A stretch of DNA of 5,945 bases from IMG/VR virus record IMGVR_UViG_3300022692_000031, positions 1 to 5,945 of that record; one strand, written 5' to 3'. This document shows positions 1 through 5,945 of the stretch, piece after piece. The notes under the pieces were generated by a model. It was not told the DNA's origin, searched no databases, and saw only the letters and a program-made list of their open reading frames with translations. Source of the DNA: a virus (taxonomy: Duplodnaviria; Heunggongvirae; Uroviricota; Caudoviricetes). The translations under genes and the position numbers were made by a program. How positions within the stretch are numbered: the first letter of the stretch is position 1; each line of letters starts with the position of its first letter.

Positions 1-105
1 GTCATAGTGACGGCACTGGTAACGAGGAAAGACCTCTGCGAGGTACGAATCCGAACCGGCCAGACGGAGGTCGCTGTTTTCACAGTCTACGAACCTGAGG
101 AGTAA
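1..105 (+). CDS. hokD: Hok-family type I membrane toxin, C-terminal part (5' end lies left of the window)
   Basis: Frame 1 from nt 1 reads VIVTALVTRKDLCEVRIRTGQTEVAVFTVYEPEE, then TAA at 103-105. This matches my recollection of the C-terminus of E. coli HokD/RelF. It is absent from the ORF track because the start is outside the window. Confidence 0.85.
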   Translation, partial: VIVTALVTRKDLCEVRIRTGQTEVAVFTVYEPEE

Positions 106-114
106 GAGTGACCT

Positions 115-142
115 GGGCGGGGTACTGATCCCATCCCCGCCC
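115..142 (+). other. GC-rich hairpin in the hok 3' UTR (8-bp stem GGGCGGGG/CCCCGCCC, 12-nt loop)
   Basis: Perfect inverted repeat read directly from the sequence. Hok-family mRNAs carry 3' fold-back structures; no T-tract follows, so it is not a terminator in itself. Confidence 0.4.
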
Positions 143-183
143 ACCTCTGATGTGTCAGGCATCCTCAATGCACCCGCACTTAA

Positions 184-208
184 CCCGCTTCGGCGGGGTT
201 TGTTTTTT
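184..208 (+). terminator. Rho-independent terminator after hok
   Basis: Stem CCCGC, loop TTCG, stem GCGGG, followed by GTTTGTTTTTT. Confidence 0.6.
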
Positions 209-279
209 CCTGGCATTCTGGTTTACAATTCGCACGTCAGCCTGAACAACTGGCACCTGCTGCGTCACCGGAGATCCCG

Positions 280-549
280 ATGGCGCACGATACCAGATTG
301 CACAATTCTGCCGACCTTGCCAGCAGGCATGGGCGGCGTTCTCACACATTCAAATCTGACTGGTTCCAGCATGACCCGTGCACTGAAGAACAGGCCGAAT
401 GGCTGATTCAGTGCTACCGCAGACGTGGTTACGAGTTTCAGAAAGATCTCAGCTTCGATCGTCGTCACTGGATAATCTCCGTCAGGCTCCCTTATTCCGA
501 ACGCCCACCGCGTCCGTCCCGCACATTCCAGCAGCGCATCTGGAGGTAA
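280..549 (+). CDS. Hypothetical small protein (89 aa); Rem-like by position between hok and the DUF968 gene
   Basis: ORF with GGAG 6 nt upstream of the ATG. Its TAA stop (547-549) abuts the GTG start of the next gene at 551, consistent with translational coupling. Assignment rests on synteny with the Qin prophage order hokD-rem-ydfU only; I do not recognise the sequence. Confidence 0.4.
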   Translation: MAHDTRLHNSADLASRHGRRSHTFKSDWFQHDPCTEEQAEWLIQCYRRRGYEFQKDLSFDRRHWIISVRLPYSERPPRPSRTFQQRIWR

Positions 550-550
550 C

Positions 551-1600
551 GTGCGGGTATTACTTCGACCTGTTCTGGTACCGGAACTCGGGATGGTGCT
601 CCTTAAGCCGGGCCGTGAATCAATGTCAGCATTCCATAACGGCAGAATATTGGTGGAGCCGGAACCGAAAAACATGCGCGGTCTGCCGTCCGGAGTCGTT
701 CCTGCCGTTCGCCAGCCGCTGGCAGAGGATAAAACATTACTGCCATTTTTCAGCGATGAGCGGGTTATTCGTGCAGCAGGTGGTGCAGGTGCACTGTCTG
801 ACTGGTTATTACGTCACGTGAAATCCTGCCAGTGGCCACACGGCGATTATCATCACAGCGAAACCGTCATTCACCGTTACGGTACCGGCGCGATGGTGTT
901 GTGCTGGCACTGTGACAACCAGCTGCGCGACCAGACATCAGAATCACTCGATCAACTTGCTCAGCAGAATCTGGCAGTCTGGATGATTGATGTTATACGT
1001 CACGCAATAAACGGTACGCAGGAGAGGGAGTTATCGCTGGCCGAATTATCCTGGTGGGCGGCCTGCAATCAGGTGGTGGATGCACTACCTGAGGCAGTAG
1101 CGCGTCGTTCGCTGGGATTACCGGTGGAAAAAATCCGCTCCGTATACCGTGAGAGTGACATCGTACCGGGAGAACAGACAGCCATCAGCATACTGAAGCA
1201 GCGCACAAAAAATATTGCGCTGCCACTTCACGTCCACCAGCAACAAAATCCACCACAGAAAAAAACGGTTGTCAGTATCGCTGTTGATCCGGAGTCTCCT
1301 GAATCGTTCATGAGGCGGCCTAAACGTCGCCGTTGGGTTAATGAGAAATACACGCGCTGGGTAAAGACACAGCCGTGTGCGTGTTGTGGTAAGCCTGCTG
1401 ACGATCCGCATCACCTGATTGGTCATGGTCAGGGGGGAATGGGGACAAAGGCCCACGATATTTTCACGCTACCGTTGTGCCGGGAGCACCACAACGAACT
1501 TCATGCAGACCCGCTGGAGTTTGAGAAAAAGTACGGCTCTCAGATTGAGTTAATTTTTCGTTTTCTTGATCACGCCTTTGCGACTGGCGTGCTCGGGTAA
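551..1600 (+). CDS. ydfU: DUF968/YdfU-like prophage protein with a C-terminal HNH-like Cys/His motif
   Basis: 349-aa ORF with GTG start and a GGAGG Shine-Dalgarno at 543-547. The C-terminus reads CACCGKPADDPHHLIGHG...LCREHHNELH, an HNH-like metal-binding arrangement. Size and position (hok, small ORF, this gene, then Q) match the Qin prophage ydfU locus; the symbol is given on synteny and size, not on a verified alignment. Confidence 0.75.
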   Translation: MRVLLRPVLVPELGMVLLKPGRESMSAFHNGRILVEPEPKNMRGLPSGVVPAVRQPLAEDKTLLPFFSDERVIRAAGGAGALSDWLLRHVKSCQWPHGDYHHSETVIHRYGTGAMVLCWHCDNQLRDQTSESLDQLAQQNLAVWMIDVIRHAINGTQERELSLAELSWWAACNQVVDALPEAVARRSLGLPVEKIRSVYRESDIVPGEQTAISILKQRTKNIALPLHVHQQQNPPQKKTVVSIAVDPESPESFMRRPKRRRWVNEKYTRWVKTQPCACCGKPADDPHHLIGHGQGGMGTKAHDIFTLPLCREHHNELHADPLEFEKKYGSQIELIFRFLDHAFATGVLG

Positions 1601-1612
1601 AAGAGGTGACTG

Positions 1613-1987
1613 ATGCTCATAGATTTGGTTTTACCTTACCCGCCGACGGTGAACACTTACTGGCGACGCCGTGGCAGCACATATTTTGTATCAAAAGCCG
1701 GGGAGCGTTATCGCCGTGCAGTGGCGCTTATTGTTCGCCAGCAGCGGCTGAAATTAAGCCTGTCCGGACGGCTGGCAATAAAAATTATTGCAGAGCCACC
1801 GGATAAGCGTCGTCGTGACCTGGACAACATTCTGAAAGCACCGCTGGATGCGCTGACGCATGCGGGACTGCTTATCGACGATGAACAGTTTGATGAAATC
1901 AATATTGTACGTGGTCAGCCAGTATCTGGTGGACGTCTGGGGGTGAAGATTTACCCCATAATGCTTGAAGGGCAGGTCAAAAAATGA
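1613..1987 (+). CDS. rusA: RusA crossover-junction endodeoxyribonuclease (Holliday junction resolvase)
   Basis: 124-aa ORF with AAGAGG 7 nt upstream of the ATG. The segment PDKRRRDLDNILKAPLDALTHAGLLIDDEQF aligns with the RusA core [31 protein letters not shown] as I remember it, including the acidic catalytic residues. Its stop overlaps the next start (ATGA at 1984-1987). Confidence 0.9.
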   Translation: MLIDLVLPYPPTVNTYWRRRGSTYFVSKAGERYRRAVALIVRQQRLKLSLSGRLAIKIIAEPPDKRRRDLDNILKAPLDALTHAGLLIDDEQFDEINIVRGQPVSGGRLGVKIYPIMLEGQVKK

Positions 1988-2805
1988 AACTGGAAGATTT
2001 ACCGAAATACTACTCCCCAAAATCCCCCGGCCTGACTGATGCATCGGCCTCAACGTCAAAAGATGCGCTGAGTATCACTGATGTGATGGCCGCGCAGGGC
2101 ATGACACAGAATCGGGCTGAGATGGGGTTTTCTGCGTTCCTTGGGAGAATGGGCATTAGTATGAATGACAGAGAGCGGGCAACAGAATTGCTGACAGAAT
2201 ATGCACTCAGTCGGTGTGATCGCGTGGCGGCGTTAAGAAAACTCCCGGCAGAAATAAAACCGGCAGTGATGCGTATTATGGCTTCGTATGCGTTTGAAGA
2301 TTATGCCCGTAGCGCGGCGAGCAAAAAACAGTGCCCCTGCTGTCACGGAAAAAAATTTATTGAAAGCGAGGTTTTTACAAACAAGATCCAGTATCCGGAT
2401 GGTAAGCCGCCAGTGTGGGCAAAGTGCACAAAAGGCGTGTATCCGTCTTACTGGGAGGAATGGAAAAAAGTCAGGGAGGTGGTAAAAGTTGCCTGTCCGG
2501 AGTGTGGCGGAAAGGGGGAGGTTTCCACCGCCTGTAAAGATTGTCGTGGGCGCGGTGTTGCCATTCATCGTGAAGAGTCGGAAAAACAGGGTGTGCCGGT
2601 TTTCAGAAACTGTCAGCGTTGTGGTGGGCGTGGCTATGAAAGATTACCTTCAACGGAGGCATTTAATGCCATATGTAATGTAACCGATGCCATATCTCTT
2701 GATACATGGAAAAAAACAGTTAAACGTTTTTACGATACGCTGGTGGTGCAGTTTGATATTGAAGAAGCATGGGCAGAACAACAACTGAAAAAGGTGACCA
2801 GATAG
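1984..2805 (+). CDS. Q-type late-gene antiterminator (QuuQ-like) with DnaJ-type CxxCxGxG zinc-finger repeats
   Basis: 273-aa ORF in the canonical position after rusA and before a promoter-terminator unit. It contains the repeats CPECGGKG, CKDCRGRG and CQRCGGRG plus CPCCHGKK. Size and cysteine repeats fit the large Qin-type Q family from memory. Confidence 0.7.
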   Translation: MKLEDLPKYYSPKSPGLTDASASTSKDALSITDVMAAQGMTQNRAEMGFSAFLGRMGISMNDRERATELLTEYALSRCDRVAALRKLPAEIKPAVMRIMASYAFEDYARSAASKKQCPCCHGKKFIESEVFTNKIQYPDGKPPVWAKCTKGVYPSYWEEWKKVREVVKVACPECGGKGEVSTACKDCRGRGVAIHREESEKQGVPVFRNCQRCGGRGYERLPSTEAFNAICNVTDAISLDTWKKTVKRFYDTLVVQFDIEEAWAEQQLKKVTR

Positions 2806-2810
2806 CTTTG

Positions 2811-2838
2811 TTGATTTTTCCCGAATCTGTGGTAAATT
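2811..2838 (+). promoter_or_regulatory. Candidate late promoter PR' (-35 TTGATT, 16-bp spacer, extended -10 TGgTAAATT)
   Basis: Sigma-70-like hexamers read directly, immediately downstream of the Q stop and about 50 nt upstream of the terminator at 2888-2909. This is the expected PR'-tR' arrangement of lambdoid late control. Confidence 0.35.
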
Positions 2839-2887
2839 TGCCCTAACGATGGGCGTTTTATGCCTGACGTTAGAAGATTTTTTACAC

Positions 2888-2909
2888 CCCGCCGCCTGGC
2901 GGGTTTTTT
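2888..2909 (+). terminator. Rho-independent terminator, candidate tR'
   Basis: Stem CCCGCC, loop GCCT, stem GGCGGG, followed by TTTTTTAT. Confidence 0.6.
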
Positions 2910-3031
2910 ATGACTGAAATCGCGTCAGTACAGTAAACGCGCTGGTGGCGGTGAATACCGGTCTTTCAGCTTGCTGGCTTTTTTGACAAGAGTTATTGGT
3001 GTGTCACGTTAACCGAAAAAGGGAAAAAGAC

Positions 3032-3229
3032 ATGCTGAAACAGCAGGATATGACAGAAACTGCCAGAGCAGTGTTTAATGAATTAAGCGTCACCGAACCG
3101 GCGACAGTCGGGGAGATTGCGCAGAATACTTACCTTTCACGCGAACGCTGCCAGTTAATACTGACCCAGCTTGTTATGGCGGGTCTGGCAGACTATCAGT
3201 TCGGTTGTTACAGACGCCTTCGGTCCTGA
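3032..3229 (+). CDS. Small (65 aa) putative winged-helix DNA-binding protein, PapI/FaeA-like pattern
   Basis: ATG at 3032 preceded by a purine-rich AAGGGAAAAAG. The segment TVGEIAQNTYLSRERCQLILTQLVMAGL resembles the helix-turn-helix region of the small PapI/FaeA family (compare [28 protein letters not shown]) from memory. Confidence 0.5.
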   Translation: MLKQQDMTETARAVFNELSVTEPATVGEIAQNTYLSRERCQLILTQLVMAGLADYQFGCYRRLRS

Positions 3230-3240
3230 AGGCTTTTTTA
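3216..3240 (+). terminator. Strong Rho-independent terminator overlapping the stop codon of the small ORF
   Basis: Perfect stem GCCTTC/GAAGGC with loop GGTCCT, followed by TTTTTTATTT. The TGA stop at 3227-3229 lies inside the hairpin. Confidence 0.65.
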
Positions 3241-3242
3241 TT

Positions 3243-3252
3243 TGTGGTAAAT
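3243..3252 (+). promoter_or_regulatory. Second copy of the 10-mer TGTGGTAAAT (extended -10-like element)
   Basis: The same 10-mer occurs at 2828-2837 inside the PR' candidate. This copy sits just after the terminator and upstream of the methyltransferase gene. Confidence 0.25.
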
Positions 3253-3328
3253 GGGCGGCTGGTGGGTGTTAGGGGCACTCACCAGCCATCTGCTCATGCG
3301 TCTGGATCACAAGCAAACCTCAGGCCCA

Positions 3329-3347
3329 CTGCTTTGCGCAAAAGCAG
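3329..3347 (+). promoter_or_regulatory. Near-perfect dyad CTGCTTTGCGCAAAAGCAG about 35 bp upstream of the methyltransferase start
   Basis: Inverted repeat read directly from the sequence, with 7-bp arms and one unpaired A. It could be an operator or an RNA hairpin. Confidence 0.3.
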
Positions 3348-3379
3348 AATGAGCCTATCAGAGACAGGCTTAATGATCC

Positions 3380-4438
3380 ATGCTTAACACTGTAAAAATA
3401 TCCAGTTGTGAGTTAATCAACGCCGACTGCCTGGAATTTATCCGGTCGTTACCCGAAAATTCTGTTGACCTGATAGTCACGGATCCGCCGTACTTTAAAG
3501 TGAAGCCTGAGGGCTGGGATAACCAGTGGAAGGGCGACGATGATTACCTGAAGTGGCTGGACCAGTGTCTTGCGCAGTTCTGGCGGGTGCTGAAACCTGC
3601 CGGAAGTCTTTACCTGTTCTGTGGCCATCGCCTGGCATCTGACATTGAAATCATGATGCGTGAACGCTTCAGTGTGCTGAACCATATTATCTGGGCGAAG
3701 CCGTCCGGACGCTGGAACGGGTGCAACAAGGAAAGCCTGAGGGCGTATTTCCCCGCCACAGAGCGCATTCTGTTCGCGGAACATTATCAGGGGCCGTATC
3801 GTCCGAAAGATGCCGGGTATGAGGCGAAGGGCAGGGCACTGAAACAGCATGTGATGGCACCGCTGATTGCTTACTTTCGTGATGCGCGTGCTGCCCTGGG
3901 GATAACGGCAAAACAGATTGCTGATGCCACAGGAAAGAAAAACATGGTGTCGCACTGGTTCAGTGCCAGTCAGTGGCAGTTACCGAACGAAAGCGATTAT
4001 CTGAAATTACAGGTGCTGTTTGCCCGGGTGGCAGAAGAGAAGCATCAGCGGGGTGAACTGGAAAAGCCCCACCACCAGCTGCTGGAGACGTATACTTCAC
4101 TGAACCGGCAGTATGCGGAACTGCAGAGTGAATATAAGCATCTGCGGCGGTATTTTGGCGTGACGGCGCAGGTGCCGTACACGGATGTGTGGACGCATAA
4201 ACCGGTGCAGTACTATCCCGGGAAACATCCGTGCGAAAAACCGGCAGAAATGCTGCAGCAGATAATCAGCGCGAGCAGTCGTCCGGGTGACCTGGTTGCA
4301 GATTTTTTCATGGGGTCGGGTTCGACAGTCAAAGCCGCGATGGCGCTGGGGCGGCGTGCAACTGGCGTTGAGCTGGAGACTGAACGTTTTGAGCAGACGG
4401 TCAGAGAAGTTCAGGATTTAGTCAGTCAGAACGGATGA
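3380..4438 (+). CDS. DNA methyltransferase, beta-class amino-methyltransferase (probably N6-adenine), with no restriction partner in the window
   Basis: 352-aa ORF. The catalytic motif IV DPPY (LIVTDPPYF) is near the N-terminus and the SAM-binding motif I FxGxG (DFFMGSGST) near the C-terminus, the beta-class order seen in CcrM, HinfI and RsrI methyltransferases. Confidence 0.9.
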   Translation: MLNTVKISSCELINADCLEFIRSLPENSVDLIVTDPPYFKVKPEGWDNQWKGDDDYLKWLDQCLAQFWRVLKPAGSLYLFCGHRLASDIEIMMRERFSVLNHIIWAKPSGRWNGCNKESLRAYFPATERILFAEHYQGPYRPKDAGYEAKGRALKQHVMAPLIAYFRDARAALGITAKQIADATGKKNMVSHWFSASQWQLPNESDYLKLQVLFARVAEEKHQRGELEKPHHQLLETYTSLNRQYAELQSEYKHLRRYFGVTAQVPYTDVWTHKPVQYYPGKHPCEKPAEMLQQIISASSRPGDLVADFFMGSGSTVKAAMALGRRATGVELETERFEQTVREVQDLVSQNG

Positions 4439-4478
4439 TATTGCAGGATTAGTTACGTACCGTTATTATCCTGCGCCC

Positions 4479-4554
4479 GGCCCTTTAGCTCAGTGGTGAG
4501 AGCGAGCGACTCATAATCGCCAGGTCGCTGGTTCAAATCCAGCAAGGGCCACCA
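4479..4554 (+). tRNA. tRNA with anticodon CAU, ileX/ileZ-like (tRNA-Ile2, lysidine type; an anticodon-only caller would say Met)
   Basis: Manually folded 76-nt cloverleaf: acceptor GGCCCTT/AAGGGCC, D-stem GCTC/GAGC, anticodon loop CTCATAA, T-arm GCTGG-TTCAAAT-CCAGC, encoded CCA. The overall sequence closely resembles E. coli ileX as I remember it. Confidence 0.85.
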
Positions 4555-4563
4555 TATCACATA

Positions 4564-4640
4564 CCGCCATTAGCTCATCGGGATAGAGCGCCAGCCTTCG
4601 AAGCTGGCTGCGCGGGGTTCGAGTCCTCGATGGCGGTCCA
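4564..4640 (+). tRNA. tRNA-Arg, anticodon UCG
   Basis: Manually folded 77-nt cloverleaf: acceptor CCGCCAT/ATGGCGG, D-stem GCTC/GAGC, anticodon stem CCAGC/GCTGG with loop CTTCGAA, T-arm CGGGG-TTCGAGT-CCTCG, encoded CCA. The 5' C1 is unusual but pairs with G72. Confidence 0.75.
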
Positions 4641-4696
4641 TTATCTGCATTATGCGTTGTTGGTTCTGATGAGTGAATCATTGTCTTTTGAGCAAC

Positions 4697-4718
4697 AGGC
4701 TATCATATAAGATAGCCT
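4697..4718 (+). other. Perfect 8-bp inverted repeat AGGCTATC-ATATAA-GATAGCCT downstream of the tRNAs
   Basis: Read directly from the sequence. No immediate T-tract; it may be a processing or regulatory hairpin or a protein-binding dyad. Confidence 0.3.
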
Positions 4719-4918
4719 CAGACTTCCTTGTTTATTCTCGCCGGATGCTTCGTAGATATTTGCAGGCATCTGTATGCAGGGGTATTATTGCGGCATATAT
4801 CATCCGGAAAAATAAAAACTACATGCTGATCCGGAGATGATAGTTACAAGTCCTCCCGGATCCCGCATATTTACTATATTTTATAGATAATTGTTCTTGT
4901 TAATATGGAGATGGATAA

Positions 4919-5347
4919 ATGTATTGCCGTGCTGTACCGGTTCTTGTTTTGATATTAGCCAGTCTGACAACTGGCTGCACAAAAGATGTATCGACAAATA
5001 ATCATGATGCTTCTCTGTATCACTCAGATAAATTAATAAAGTCGCAAAATTTGAGCTCATCGGAACGTACCCCTGATGCCAGTGAAGAAATCCGGCAGTA
5101 TGCCATTCAGGTCAGGAAAGCCATAGAAGAACAGTTAAAGGATGCGAGTAAGTATTCAGGAAAAGAGTGTTCACTGAGAATGTATATGGCCCCGAATGGT
5201 CTTCTGCTACAGGTTAAAAGAGAAAGCGGTGATCCCGATTTATGTCGTGAAGCGATGAATGCAGTAAAGAATGCTGATATACCATCACCACCGTCTTCAG
5301 GAGTATATAAAGCATTTAGAAATGGCGTGCTGGATTTTAAACTCTGA
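4919..5347 (+). CDS. Putative secreted lipoprotein homologous to TolA C-terminal domain III
   Basis: 142-aa ORF with GGAG 8 nt upstream of the ATG. The N-terminus has a hydrophobic signal (AVPVLVLILASL) followed by LTTGC, a lipobox-like cysteine. Residues about 60-142 align at roughly 50 percent identity with my recollection of the E. coli TolA C-terminus (YAGQIKSAIESKFYDASSYAGKTCTLRIKLAPDGMLLDIKPEGGDPALCQAALAAAKLAKIPKPPSQAVYEVFKNAPLDFKP), including both cysteines. Confidence 0.8.
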   Translation: MYCRAVPVLVLILASLTTGCTKDVSTNNHDASLYHSDKLIKSQNLSSSERTPDASEEIRQYAIQVRKAIEEQLKDASKYSGKECSLRMYMAPNGLLLQVKRESGDPDLCREAMNAVKNADIPSPPSSGVYKAFRNGVLDFKL

Positions 5348-5350
5348 CAG

Positions 5351-5380
5351 GGGGAGAAGATTTTCTCCTGTCCTGATGAT
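5351..5380 (+). terminator. Weak terminator-like hairpin just after the lipoprotein stop
   Basis: Stem GGAGAA, loop GATT, stem TTCTCC, followed by TGTCCTGATGATTTTGG. Imperfect T-tract. Confidence 0.3.
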
Positions 5381-5636
5381 TTTGGGGCGCTGGAAAGATA
5401 TTGTGCTGTGAAGTGTTAAATCCCTCACAATTCAGTAAGTTGACAGTTGCCTGTCAGACTGAGCATTTGTTAAAAAAATTTCGCATGGTGAATCCCCCTG
5501 TGCGGAGGGGCGACTGGTGAACGGTATGATCTCTTTGATGATCGTAAGCGAGAATACGCGGGTTTGGTGTCACCGGGCTGAACTCACCGGGAGGCACCCG
5601 GCACCATGCTCATGGTGATACAGAAATGCGGCTTCA

Positions 5637-5660
5637 GCCCCTCTCCGGAGGGGCTTTCTT
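5637..5660 (+). terminator. Rho-independent terminator for + strand transcripts
   Basis: Stem GCCCCTC, loop TCCG, stem GAGGGGC, followed by TTTCTT. Confidence 0.5.
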
Positions 5661-5666
5661 ATGGAC

Positions 5667-5695
5667 AAAAAAAGCCCGCGCTGGGAGACGCGGGC
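5667..5695 (-). terminator. Rho-independent terminator for - strand transcripts
   Basis: On the - strand this reads GCCCGCG-TCTCCCAG-CGCGGGC followed by seven T. With the + strand terminator 7 bp to its left it forms a convergent pair. Confidence 0.55.
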
Positions 5696-5814
5696 GGCAA
5701 GGAATAAACAATAAAACGTGAAGTAATACTTCAACTGGCGAATAATACCCGACAGTAATCACTCTGCGCAATAGCGTGGCCTTTTTCGAATTGCGGGCTG
5801 TAGTCTCCCTTCTG

Positions 5815-5945
5815 CCGGGTGTCCTGGTTGCAGATTTCTTCATGGGGTAGGGTTCGGCAGTTAAAGCAGCGATGGCGCTGGGGCGTCGTGCAACTGGCGT
5901 TGAGCTGGATACCGGGCGTTTTGAACAGACTGCGCAGGAAATCAG
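5815..5945 (+). pseudogene. Decayed 3' fragment of a second DNA methyltransferase gene (runs past the window edge)
   Basis: About 130 nt are roughly 85-90 percent identical to the 3' end of the intact methyltransferase gene (4283-4418). In the equivalent frame, motif I reads FMG-stop-GSA because TAG at 5848-5850 replaces TCG; there is no upstream coding sequence or start. Confidence 0.75.

Follow-up and report, generated by a model that had tools for sequence, protein, structure and literature searches.

A stand-alone TolA domain III gene of lipoprotein type in the Shiga toxin slot of Escherichia coli prophages: a putative periplasmic decoy

The window analysed in this work, a 5,945-nucleotide (nt) stretch of tailed-phage DNA (Caudoviricetes; IMG/VR virus record IMGVR_UViG_3300022692_000031, positions 1 to 5,945), carried at 4919-5347 a gene for a 142-amino-acid (aa) protein made of a lipoprotein-type signal peptide, a short linker and a complete copy of the C-terminal domain of the envelope protein TolA (TolA-III). 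Within a lambdoid prophage, the cassette containing this gene occupied exactly the slot in which Shiga toxin (Stx) phages carry stx, at nucleotide resolution, and relatives of the gene were found in other prophages, on plasmids and on chromosomes. The protein may act as a periplasmic decoy which protects the carrier cell from colicins and filamentous phages that depend on TolA.

The open reading frame (ORF) started at the ATG at 4919, and residues 1-20 (MYCRAVPVLVLILASLTTG followed by C) comprised Arg4, the hydrophobic core VPVLVLILASL and Cys20. These features agreed with a lipoprotein rule of the PROSITE PS51257 type (charged n-region, core, Cys within positions 15-35), and the signal peptide with a lipobox-like cysteine proposed in the initial annotation was thus recovered. 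Of the short homologues, 144 of 186 passed this rule, compared with 3 of 60 for long proteins resembling TolA. Among 36 diverse members of the family, at least 90% had the lipobox Cys. The residue at -3 was Thr, versus Leu as the commonest residue at this position, and the allele of phage mEp460 had a canonical lipobox (IIIG-C). Under the “+2 rule”, Thr at the position after the Cys predicts outer-membrane sorting, and Asp corresponds to Lol avoidance. Delivery to the outer membrane is predicted here because the +2 residue was Thr, not Asp, and Asp at +2 was found in none of the 144 lipobox-positive short homologues. Lipidation and outer-membrane sorting of the 142-aa protein are what we infer from these sequence features.

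The linker (residues 21-53) was rich in Ser, Asp and Asn, showed AlphaFold predicted local distance difference test (pLDDT) values below 50 for residues 22-49, and had several positions that did not vary between the prophage alleles of E. coli. It lacked any similarity to domain II of TolA, the TolA profile matches starting only at residues 47-54. The remainder of the protein was matched by the Pfam profile for the TolA C-terminal domain (PF06519, E=5.7e-23, 81.4 bits against a cut-off of 25; residues 52-140, profile positions 7-96 of 96) and, ungapped over residues 54-141, by the E. coli TolA-III entries of the PDB (phmmer; 1s62, 3qdp and 1tol, E ~1e-25). Residue n of the window protein corresponded to residue n+279 of TolA: 45 of the 89 residues of E. 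coli TolA 333-421 were identical (51%), C84 and C109 aligned with the TolA disulfide C363-C388 (both Cys invariant in 36 diverse homologues), and the chain ended one residue past the Lys equivalent to K420, at the same point as TolA. The profile search suggested in the initial annotation therefore upheld the alignment to TolA-III along the whole domain, including both disulfide cysteines, which had been read there from the sequence alone.

Models of full-length TolA matched the 142-aa protein over only their last ~90 positions: NCBIfam NF007065 (full TolA) gave 103 bits, below its cut-off of 213, and TIGR02794 gave 75.9 bits, above its cut-off of 59.45, on the C-terminal domain alone. TolA domain I, the inner-membrane anchor coupling to TolQR, was absent, the N-terminus being a predicted cleavable lipoprotein signal; a 33-residue linker stood in place of the long helical Ala/Lys/Glu-rich domain II; and its location in a prophage, with Q on one side and the lysis genes on the other, is not the tol-pal operon. 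The protein thus belongs to the family of the TolA C-terminal domain; it is not a TolA protein, as both domains I and II and the operon setting were looked for and found absent. It also matched PHROG 5772 (E=6e-58), annotated as “unknown function”.

The AlphaFold model, built on a 39-sequence alignment, reached pLDDT values of 84-96 over the residues of the TolA-III domain and superseded a run on a shallow alignment of 15 near-identical sequences (pLDDT 56, wrong C-terminal secondary structure). The order of the elements was α1, short helix, β1, β2, α2, α3 and β3. Superposition on solved TolA-III, which had likewise been suggested, gave a target-normalised template-modelling (TM) score of 0.95 and a root-mean-square deviation (rmsd) of 0.6 Å for 2x9a_B, and an rmsd of 0.7 Å for 1tol; the TolA-III structures superposed come from the If1-g3p and M13-g3p complexes.

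According to a study of TolA-III (PMC4339652), the β3 edge strand (A415-K420) binds the N1 domain of phage g3p (g3p-N1), colicin N (ColN) and the TolB N-terminus by β-strand addition; the backbone hydrogen bonds of D418 and K420 are required by all three partners, and D418P or K420P abolishes the three interactions and causes a full tol phenotype with periplasmic leakage. The same study gives affinities of ~1 µM for ColN and g3p and ~40 µM for TolB, i.e. ~40 times weaker for TolB (PMC4339652). In the window protein β3 ended in ...GVLDFKL, and in the comparison of GVLDFK with the APLDFK of TolA the L, D, F and K were identical; the equivalents of L417, D418, F419 and K420 did not differ between the three prophage alleles. 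The site for colicin A is on the other side of TolA-III, at L375-P380 plus K368, K379 and K396, and the contact between its Tyr58 and K368 of TolA is essential for complex formation (PMC3365938). From this site L375, L376, K379 and K396 were kept in the window protein. TolA-III is a hub which also contacts Pal and CpoB (PMC7391070).

The position of the gene was equally well defined. Window 2889-4661 was 96.7% identical to the Stx2a phage Stx2_95, up to the first bases of argO, and homology restarted at window 5425 (matched 5425-5826), 46 nt past the stx2B stop codon, placing the cassette junctions at 4661/4662 and 5424/5425. The segment downstream of the cassette also follows stx1B in an Stx1 phage, and in phi296, a stx-less relative, only argO lay between both flanks, i.e. 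an empty site. The GC content was 39-43% over 4650-5400 versus 53-56% in the flanks. The stx-equivalent position, the location downstream of Q, terminator-like sites and tRNAs, and the AT-richness relative to the neighbours, all described in the initial annotation, were thus reproduced, and the cassette showed the marks of a moron: an insertion present or absent between conserved flanks, and a deviant base composition. One genome with a 100% identical gene carried downstream of it a methylase fragment, an AraC-type regulator, a NanS-p esterase, holin, lysozyme and Rz. Other cargo genes found in the slot between Q and the lysis genes encoded PmrD and AraC-type regulators.

The prophage TolA-III gene was present in ~890 of 5,426 complete E. 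coli genomes (~16%, about one in six): ~122 with the window allele at 95% identity or more, and 782 with the mEp460 allele at 99% or more. Three allelic types were distinguished, 27-35% apart in protein sequence. In every context examined the gene had a Q-type gene on one side and, on the other, either the lysis genes or a decayed-prophage remnant, and in one decayed prophage without lysis genes (L018) it was kept intact. IMG/VR held 124 viral contigs with the gene; in the best 80 of these, which define all viral locus counts given here and come from a narrow-alignment scan, the 142-codon ORF was intact in 80 of 80. Many strains with the window allele came from cattle, beef or human cases of E. 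coli that produces Shiga toxin (STEC). The view of the gene as a rarity, implied earlier, did not survive these counts, nor the fact that it is routinely auto-annotated as TolA. The RefSeq (PGAP) name was “tolA: cell envelope integrity protein TolA”, sometimes as a partial pseudogene (for example L007 6169-6429). This over-annotation arises because the C-terminal domain by itself is enough to lift TIGR02794 above its cut-off, and as a result of the PGAP naming carrier genomes show two apparent tolA genes.

Canonical tolA domain III DNA was detected in 5,426 of 5,426 E. coli genomes, with an identity of at least 99% in 5,420, and the prophage gene shared 56% nucleotide identity with the host tolA (421 aa in K-12). 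Given a canonical tolA in all genomes and this low identity, sequence comparison indicates that the prophage gene is always an extra, old paralogue of tolA; the near-invariant host domain is a fixed target open to copying by a mimic. The ratio of nonsynonymous to synonymous substitution rates (dN/dS) in the domain was 0.23-0.35 across alleles, indicating purifying selection. A recent origin as a fragment of the host tolA was rejected on the nucleotide identity and the purifying selection, and the gene is taken to be functional because of the dN/dS values, the intact ORFs and its retention in ~890 genomes.

In a group of mEp460-type variants, mostly from read-archive assemblies, a frameshift after about residue 124 swapped α3 and β3 for a tail of unrelated sequence (...RRKYIKYFKMGCWILNP...). 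Either assembly errors or naturally occurring alleles with loss of function may account for this group.

A HMMER search of 1.84 billion representative proteins returned 305 relatives, many of them of 120-160 aa, aligned over their whole length and with a canonical lipobox. Homologues were detected by tblastn on 1,329 of 72,556 plasmids, many of them from Klebsiella. On a 10-kb mobilizable ColRNAI plasmid of Klebsiella pneumoniae (NZ_CP028539.3; L004 969-1702 and L024 1598-3496), the TolA-III lipoprotein gene overlapped a second gene, whose product is a stand-alone TonB C-terminal domain (Pfam TonB_C, E=9e-11) with a signal peptide, and the plasmid also carried genes for a cloacin/colicin-E3-like bacteriocin, its immunity and lysis; the pair is possibly a set of decoys for both import systems. 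The copy on pO157 lay a few kb downstream of the ssb-psiB-psiA-hok genes, another adjoined psiA on a conjugative Klebsiella plasmid, an IncR plasmid copy was next to a thioredoxin-fold gene, and a further copy was inside an F-like tra operon on a metagenomic contig. In Serratia marcescens (L012 6957-8736), a chromosomal copy adjoined genes for a GmrSD_N protein and a HEPN-domain protein, a setting resembling a defence island.

A second, pO157-like paralogue followed the mEp460-type gene in tandem in 55 of 59 viral loci, and the window-type gene in 0 of 20. Its lipobox was FVAGC, its linker contained an additional pair of Cys and its C-terminus was GFDMRG instead of LDFKP; it was located at 5919-6314 in mEp460 (L002), at 6601-6975 in L007 and at 6947-7378 in pO157 (L005). 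This subfamily was also present in Enterobacter, Citrobacter and Serratia chromosomes.

Two functional ideas, a decoy giving exclusion or tolerance and a disturbance of Tol-Pal at lysis, had been put forward in the initial annotation, and the conserved β3 edge, the spread over plasmids and a defence-island-like locus, and the pairing with a TonB domain are circumstantial support for them. The most likely selected function of the gene is protection of the carrier cell, with the TolA-III copy as a putative decoy against Tol-dependent colicins and filamentous phages; a probability of about 0.5 was assigned to this reading. Partner binding, expression timing and phenotype are here what we infer from fold and context. 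The signal peptide would be processed by the Sec/Lgt/LspA route and cut before Cys20, the Cys would be acylated, and Lol would deliver the lipoprotein to the inner leaflet of the outer membrane, where a flexible tether of ~33 residues would hold a disulfide-bonded copy of TolA-III in the periplasm. This copy would not couple to the TolQR motor or transmit force, because domains I and II are absent. Its exposed β3 edge (LDFK) would bind the partners of TolA-III: the TolB N-terminus, g3p-N1 of Ff-type phages and colicin N. Unenergised and close to the outer membrane, the decoy would capture colicin translocation domains and phage pIII ahead of the motor-coupled TolA, and the lysogen would gain a broad tolerance to Tol-dependent bacteriocins and filamentous phages. 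As ColN and g3p bind ~40 times more tightly than TolB, a low level of the decoy should favour the invaders over TolB, at little cost; at high expression (for example by Q-dependent late transcription) TolB would also be titrated and the outer membrane loosened.

Precedents exist for both sides of such a competition. Levengood-Freyermuth, Click and Webster reportedly obtained, in 1993, colicin-tolerant and leaky cells by means of a periplasmic TolA-III. In the mirror arrangement, the N1 domain of pIII placed in the periplasm sequesters TolA, makes the cells resistant to colicin A and lowers phage uptake by 4 logs (PMC10424213). The homologues on plasmids, in a tra operon and on chromosomes, the TonB-domain partner on a plasmid, the defence-gene neighbours in Serratia and the retention of the gene in at least one prophage without lysis genes are the reasons for which protection was favoured.

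Several observations weigh against protection of the carrier, or narrow it. An Enterobacter subfamily occupied one conserved chromosomal site which did not look mobile, and because of this fixed site not all members of the family are mobile-element cargo. Only one of 50,697 sequenced phage isolates (mEp460) carried the gene. The promoter-like site upstream was weak (9/12), and the location of the gene in the late transcript that depends on Q, immediately upstream of the lysis region, suits a role in lysis. A decoy that binds TolB would cost the cell a leaky, tol-like envelope. In the colicin A site of the window protein, K368 was replaced by Y, D377 by Q and P380 by R, with H and E as further variants at K368 and D377, and since these contact residues were altered, protection may not extend to colicin A.

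The first alternative is a helper in lysis or release, by which a protein made late titrates TolB (perhaps also Pal), switches off Tol-Pal and loosens the outer membrane, aiding spanin-mediated lysis, vesiculation or the release of phage or bacteriocin. The molecular act, competition with TolA-III, would be the same as for a decoy, and only the beneficiary and the timing would differ. The constant position of the gene between Q and the holin/endolysin/Rz genes, in the slot of stx (late-expressed in Stx phages), the weak evidence for a promoter of its own, and the homologue whose plasmid also encodes a bacteriocin and the associated lysis protein all agree with it, as do the conservation of the β3 strand in the window protein and the full tol phenotype, with leakage, of TolA β3 mutants that lose TolB binding (PMC4339652). 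However, homologues were found where there is nothing to lyse (near the leading-region genes of pO157, in a tra operon, on Enterobacter and Serratia chromosomes and IncR plasmids), the gene was intact in at least one decayed prophage without lysis genes, and on the ColRNAI plasmid it was on the opposite strand and outside the bacteriocin operon; moreover, the weak TolA-TolB affinity (~40 µM) would call for large amounts of protein. A lysis helper was considered unlikely as the selected function.

Somewhat less likely still is a contribution to envelope fitness unrelated to invaders, as for the morons Bor and Lom, through binding of Pal, CpoB, TolB or a porin, with possible effects on Pal mobilisation, vesicle output, resistance to detergent, bile or serum, and biofilm. 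The contacts of the TolA-III hub with Pal and CpoB (PMC7391070), the conserved chromosomal location of the Enterobacter subfamily, the presence of PmrD and AraC-type regulators as cargo in the same slot and the conserved linker positions would fit such a role, but no specific feature points to a phenotype of this kind, and a secreted TonB C-terminal partner is hard to explain except as interference with both energy-transducing import hubs. An inert passenger, a captured tolA fragment kept by a recombination-prone slot, as partial or pseudogene annotations of some copies in RefSeq and the frameshifted C-terminal variants might suggest, is highly improbable and already contradicted by the selection and architecture data: 51% aa and 56% nt identity to a host tolA that is itself at least 99% conserved (not a recent fragment), the gain of a signal peptide and lipobox common to a wide family, dN/dS of 0.23-0.35 and an intact ORF in all of the best 80 of 124 viral contigs.

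Returning to protection by a decoy, a wider proposal, tentative and held with less confidence than protection by the prophage gene itself, is a so far undescribed defence principle shared among Enterobacterales, in which lipid-anchored or secreted decoys copy the hub domains of TolA and (on at least one plasmid) TonB. The carriers would be lambdoid prophages, plasmids of the F-like and Col types and certain islands on chromosomes, the decoys would make the cell broadly tolerant of bacteriocins that use Tol or Ton and of filamentous phages specific for pili, and the window gene would be the E. coli prophage representative, in the Shiga toxin slot.

Compared with E. coli TolA-III (1TOL, 2X9A, 3QDP/3QDR, 1S62), the window protein had the same fold, disulfide, LDFK strand and chain end, with 51% identity over 89 residues. 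It differed from TolA in the lack of domains I and II, and so of a link to TolQR or the proton-motive force; in a predicted anchor in the outer instead of the inner membrane; in a location as a prophage moron instead of in the ybgC-tolQRA-tolB-pal-cpoB operon; and in the changed colicin A contacts K368, D377 and P380. The closest natural parallels in function are small accessory lipoproteins of other mobile elements: FhuA is blocked by Cor of φ80, N15 and the mEp phages and by Llp of T5, and the F plasmids encode the exclusion lipoprotein TraT. Like these, the TolA-III lipoprotein would be thought to protect its carrier at the envelope; no sequence relation to Cor, Llp or TraT was detected via Pfam, PHROG or PADLOC, and whereas they mask an outer-membrane receptor, the TolA-III lipoprotein would mimic a periplasmic co-receptor (a decoy, not a plug). 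The laboratory constructs of periplasmic TolA-III or pIII-N1 (PMC10424213) resemble it in being free domains that compete with the native TolA interaction, and differ in that the present gene is natural, widely distributed, predicted to be lipid-anchored and found on mobile elements. With stx and the other cargo between Q and the lysis genes, the cassette shared the insertion point between the phage tRNAs and the segment with the STnc100-type small RNA (sRNA) and nanS-p, as well as AT-richness and a late-transcribed location; the product is unrelated and is not a toxin. The initial annotation knew of no characterised phage TolA-III lipoprotein, and the searches made here agree with this: PHROG 5772 has no assigned function, no family among the PADLOC-DB defence models matched the 142-aa protein at E up to 1, and full-text literature searches, with thin coverage of subscription journals, found no functional work on a TolA-III protein of phage or plasmid origin.

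Features of the window around and within the TolA-III gene. Positions are those of the 5,945-nt window.
Feature	Position	Strand	Evidence or remark
Stand-alone TolA-III lipoprotein precursor gene, 142 aa	4919..5347 (including stop codon)	+	ORF list, Pfam, PDB, PHROG 5772
Signal peptide and lipobox LTTG-C	4919..4978	+	Cys20 codon 4976-4978; Thr at +2; sequence reading
Linker, residues 21-53	4979..5077	+	Predicted disordered; without similarity to TolA domain II
TolA domain III, residues 54-142 (= TolA 333-421)	5078..5344	+	Ungapped alignment, model
Shine-Dalgarno GGAG	4907..4910	+	8 nt 5' of ATG; sequence reading
AT-rich cassette (moron), 763 bp	4662..5424	.	Replaces argO and stx2AB of Stx2a phages; pairwise BLAST junctions
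Late-gene antiterminator Q	1984..2805	+	Pfam Antiterm PF03589, E=3.8e-51
Terminator-like sites after Q	2839-2855, 2888-2903		Terminator scan and fold, z=-2.5
DNA methyltransferase gene	3380-4438		Between small ORF (downstream of Q) and tRNAs
Two phage tRNAs (CAT; Arg-TCG)	4479-4554, 4564-4640	+	ARAGORN, Rfam; left neighbour of cassette
Weak σ70 promoter-like site TTTGCA-18-TATTAT	4759..4788	+	9/12 consensus matches; possible own promoter
Hairpin just 3' of stop codon	5346..5372	+	-16.6 kcal/mol, z=-1.0, poor U-tract; weak terminator candidate
STnc100-family sRNA gene	5454..5666	+	Rfam RF02076, 172 bits against gathering score 47; conserved right neighbour of cassette, in the segment found after stx1B and stx2B in Stx phages
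Strong terminator of STnc100-family sRNA	5636-5655		Terminator scan and fold

The promoter-like site at 4759-4788 was exactly kept in 15 of 20 window-type loci, but because promoter-like sites were fewer in the region than expected from shuffles, it is not evidence of function; the mEp460 allele had a 10/12 promoter-like site 30 nt upstream of its ATG. The terminator-like hairpins reported downstream of the gene in the initial annotation stood in part: the hairpin just after the stop codon is real but unexceptional, and the strong terminator exists but was rejected as belonging to the TolA-III gene, being the 3' end of the STnc100-family sRNA. Between 4696 and 4719, ~200 nt upstream of the gene, the cassette also contained an inverted repeat of 9 bp without mismatches, its loop being AT-rich (AGGCTATCA-TATAAG-ATAGCCT), which could be an operator or a terminator remnant.

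The genes 5' of Q in the window encoded DUF968 and RusA. The Q product, of 273 aa, contained two stretches of Antiterm (PF03589) as well as a zinc-finger region of the DnaJ type (CXXCXGXG), a shorter form being labelled DUF1133 in RefSeq. The first tRNA (anticodon CAT) was called “Met” by ARAGORN and in some Stx-phage annotation, and ileZ or tRNA-Ile in other records; argO, which has the anticodon TCT and is the third such gene in Stx phages, was missing in the window, lost together with stx. A 116-nt direct repeat (90% identity; 4283-4398 and 5815-5930) flanked the block of tRNAs, TolA-III gene and sRNA, the 3' end of the methyltransferase gene being duplicated 1.5 kb downstream; Stx2_95 was without the second copy, and phi296 had only a 99-nt methylase remnant before the tRNAs. 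Three further diverged STnc100-family copies preceded nanS-p in a related prophage (L001 14503-14739, 14755-15002 and 15015-15369), and such repeats may be recombination anchors for the exchange of cargo in the stx slot.

If the decoy reading is true, about one in six sequenced E. coli strains would carry, in a prophage, a gene that weakens the action of filamentous phages and group A colicins, which would bear on the colicin-based control of STEC in cattle, on competition in the gut and on attempts to combat resistance plasmids with pilus-specific phages. The decoy reading would also account for a gene now mislabelled as a second “TolA” by annotation pipelines, and would represent a new logic of envelope defence, in which the periplasmic target of the invader is copied instead of its surface receptor being hidden.

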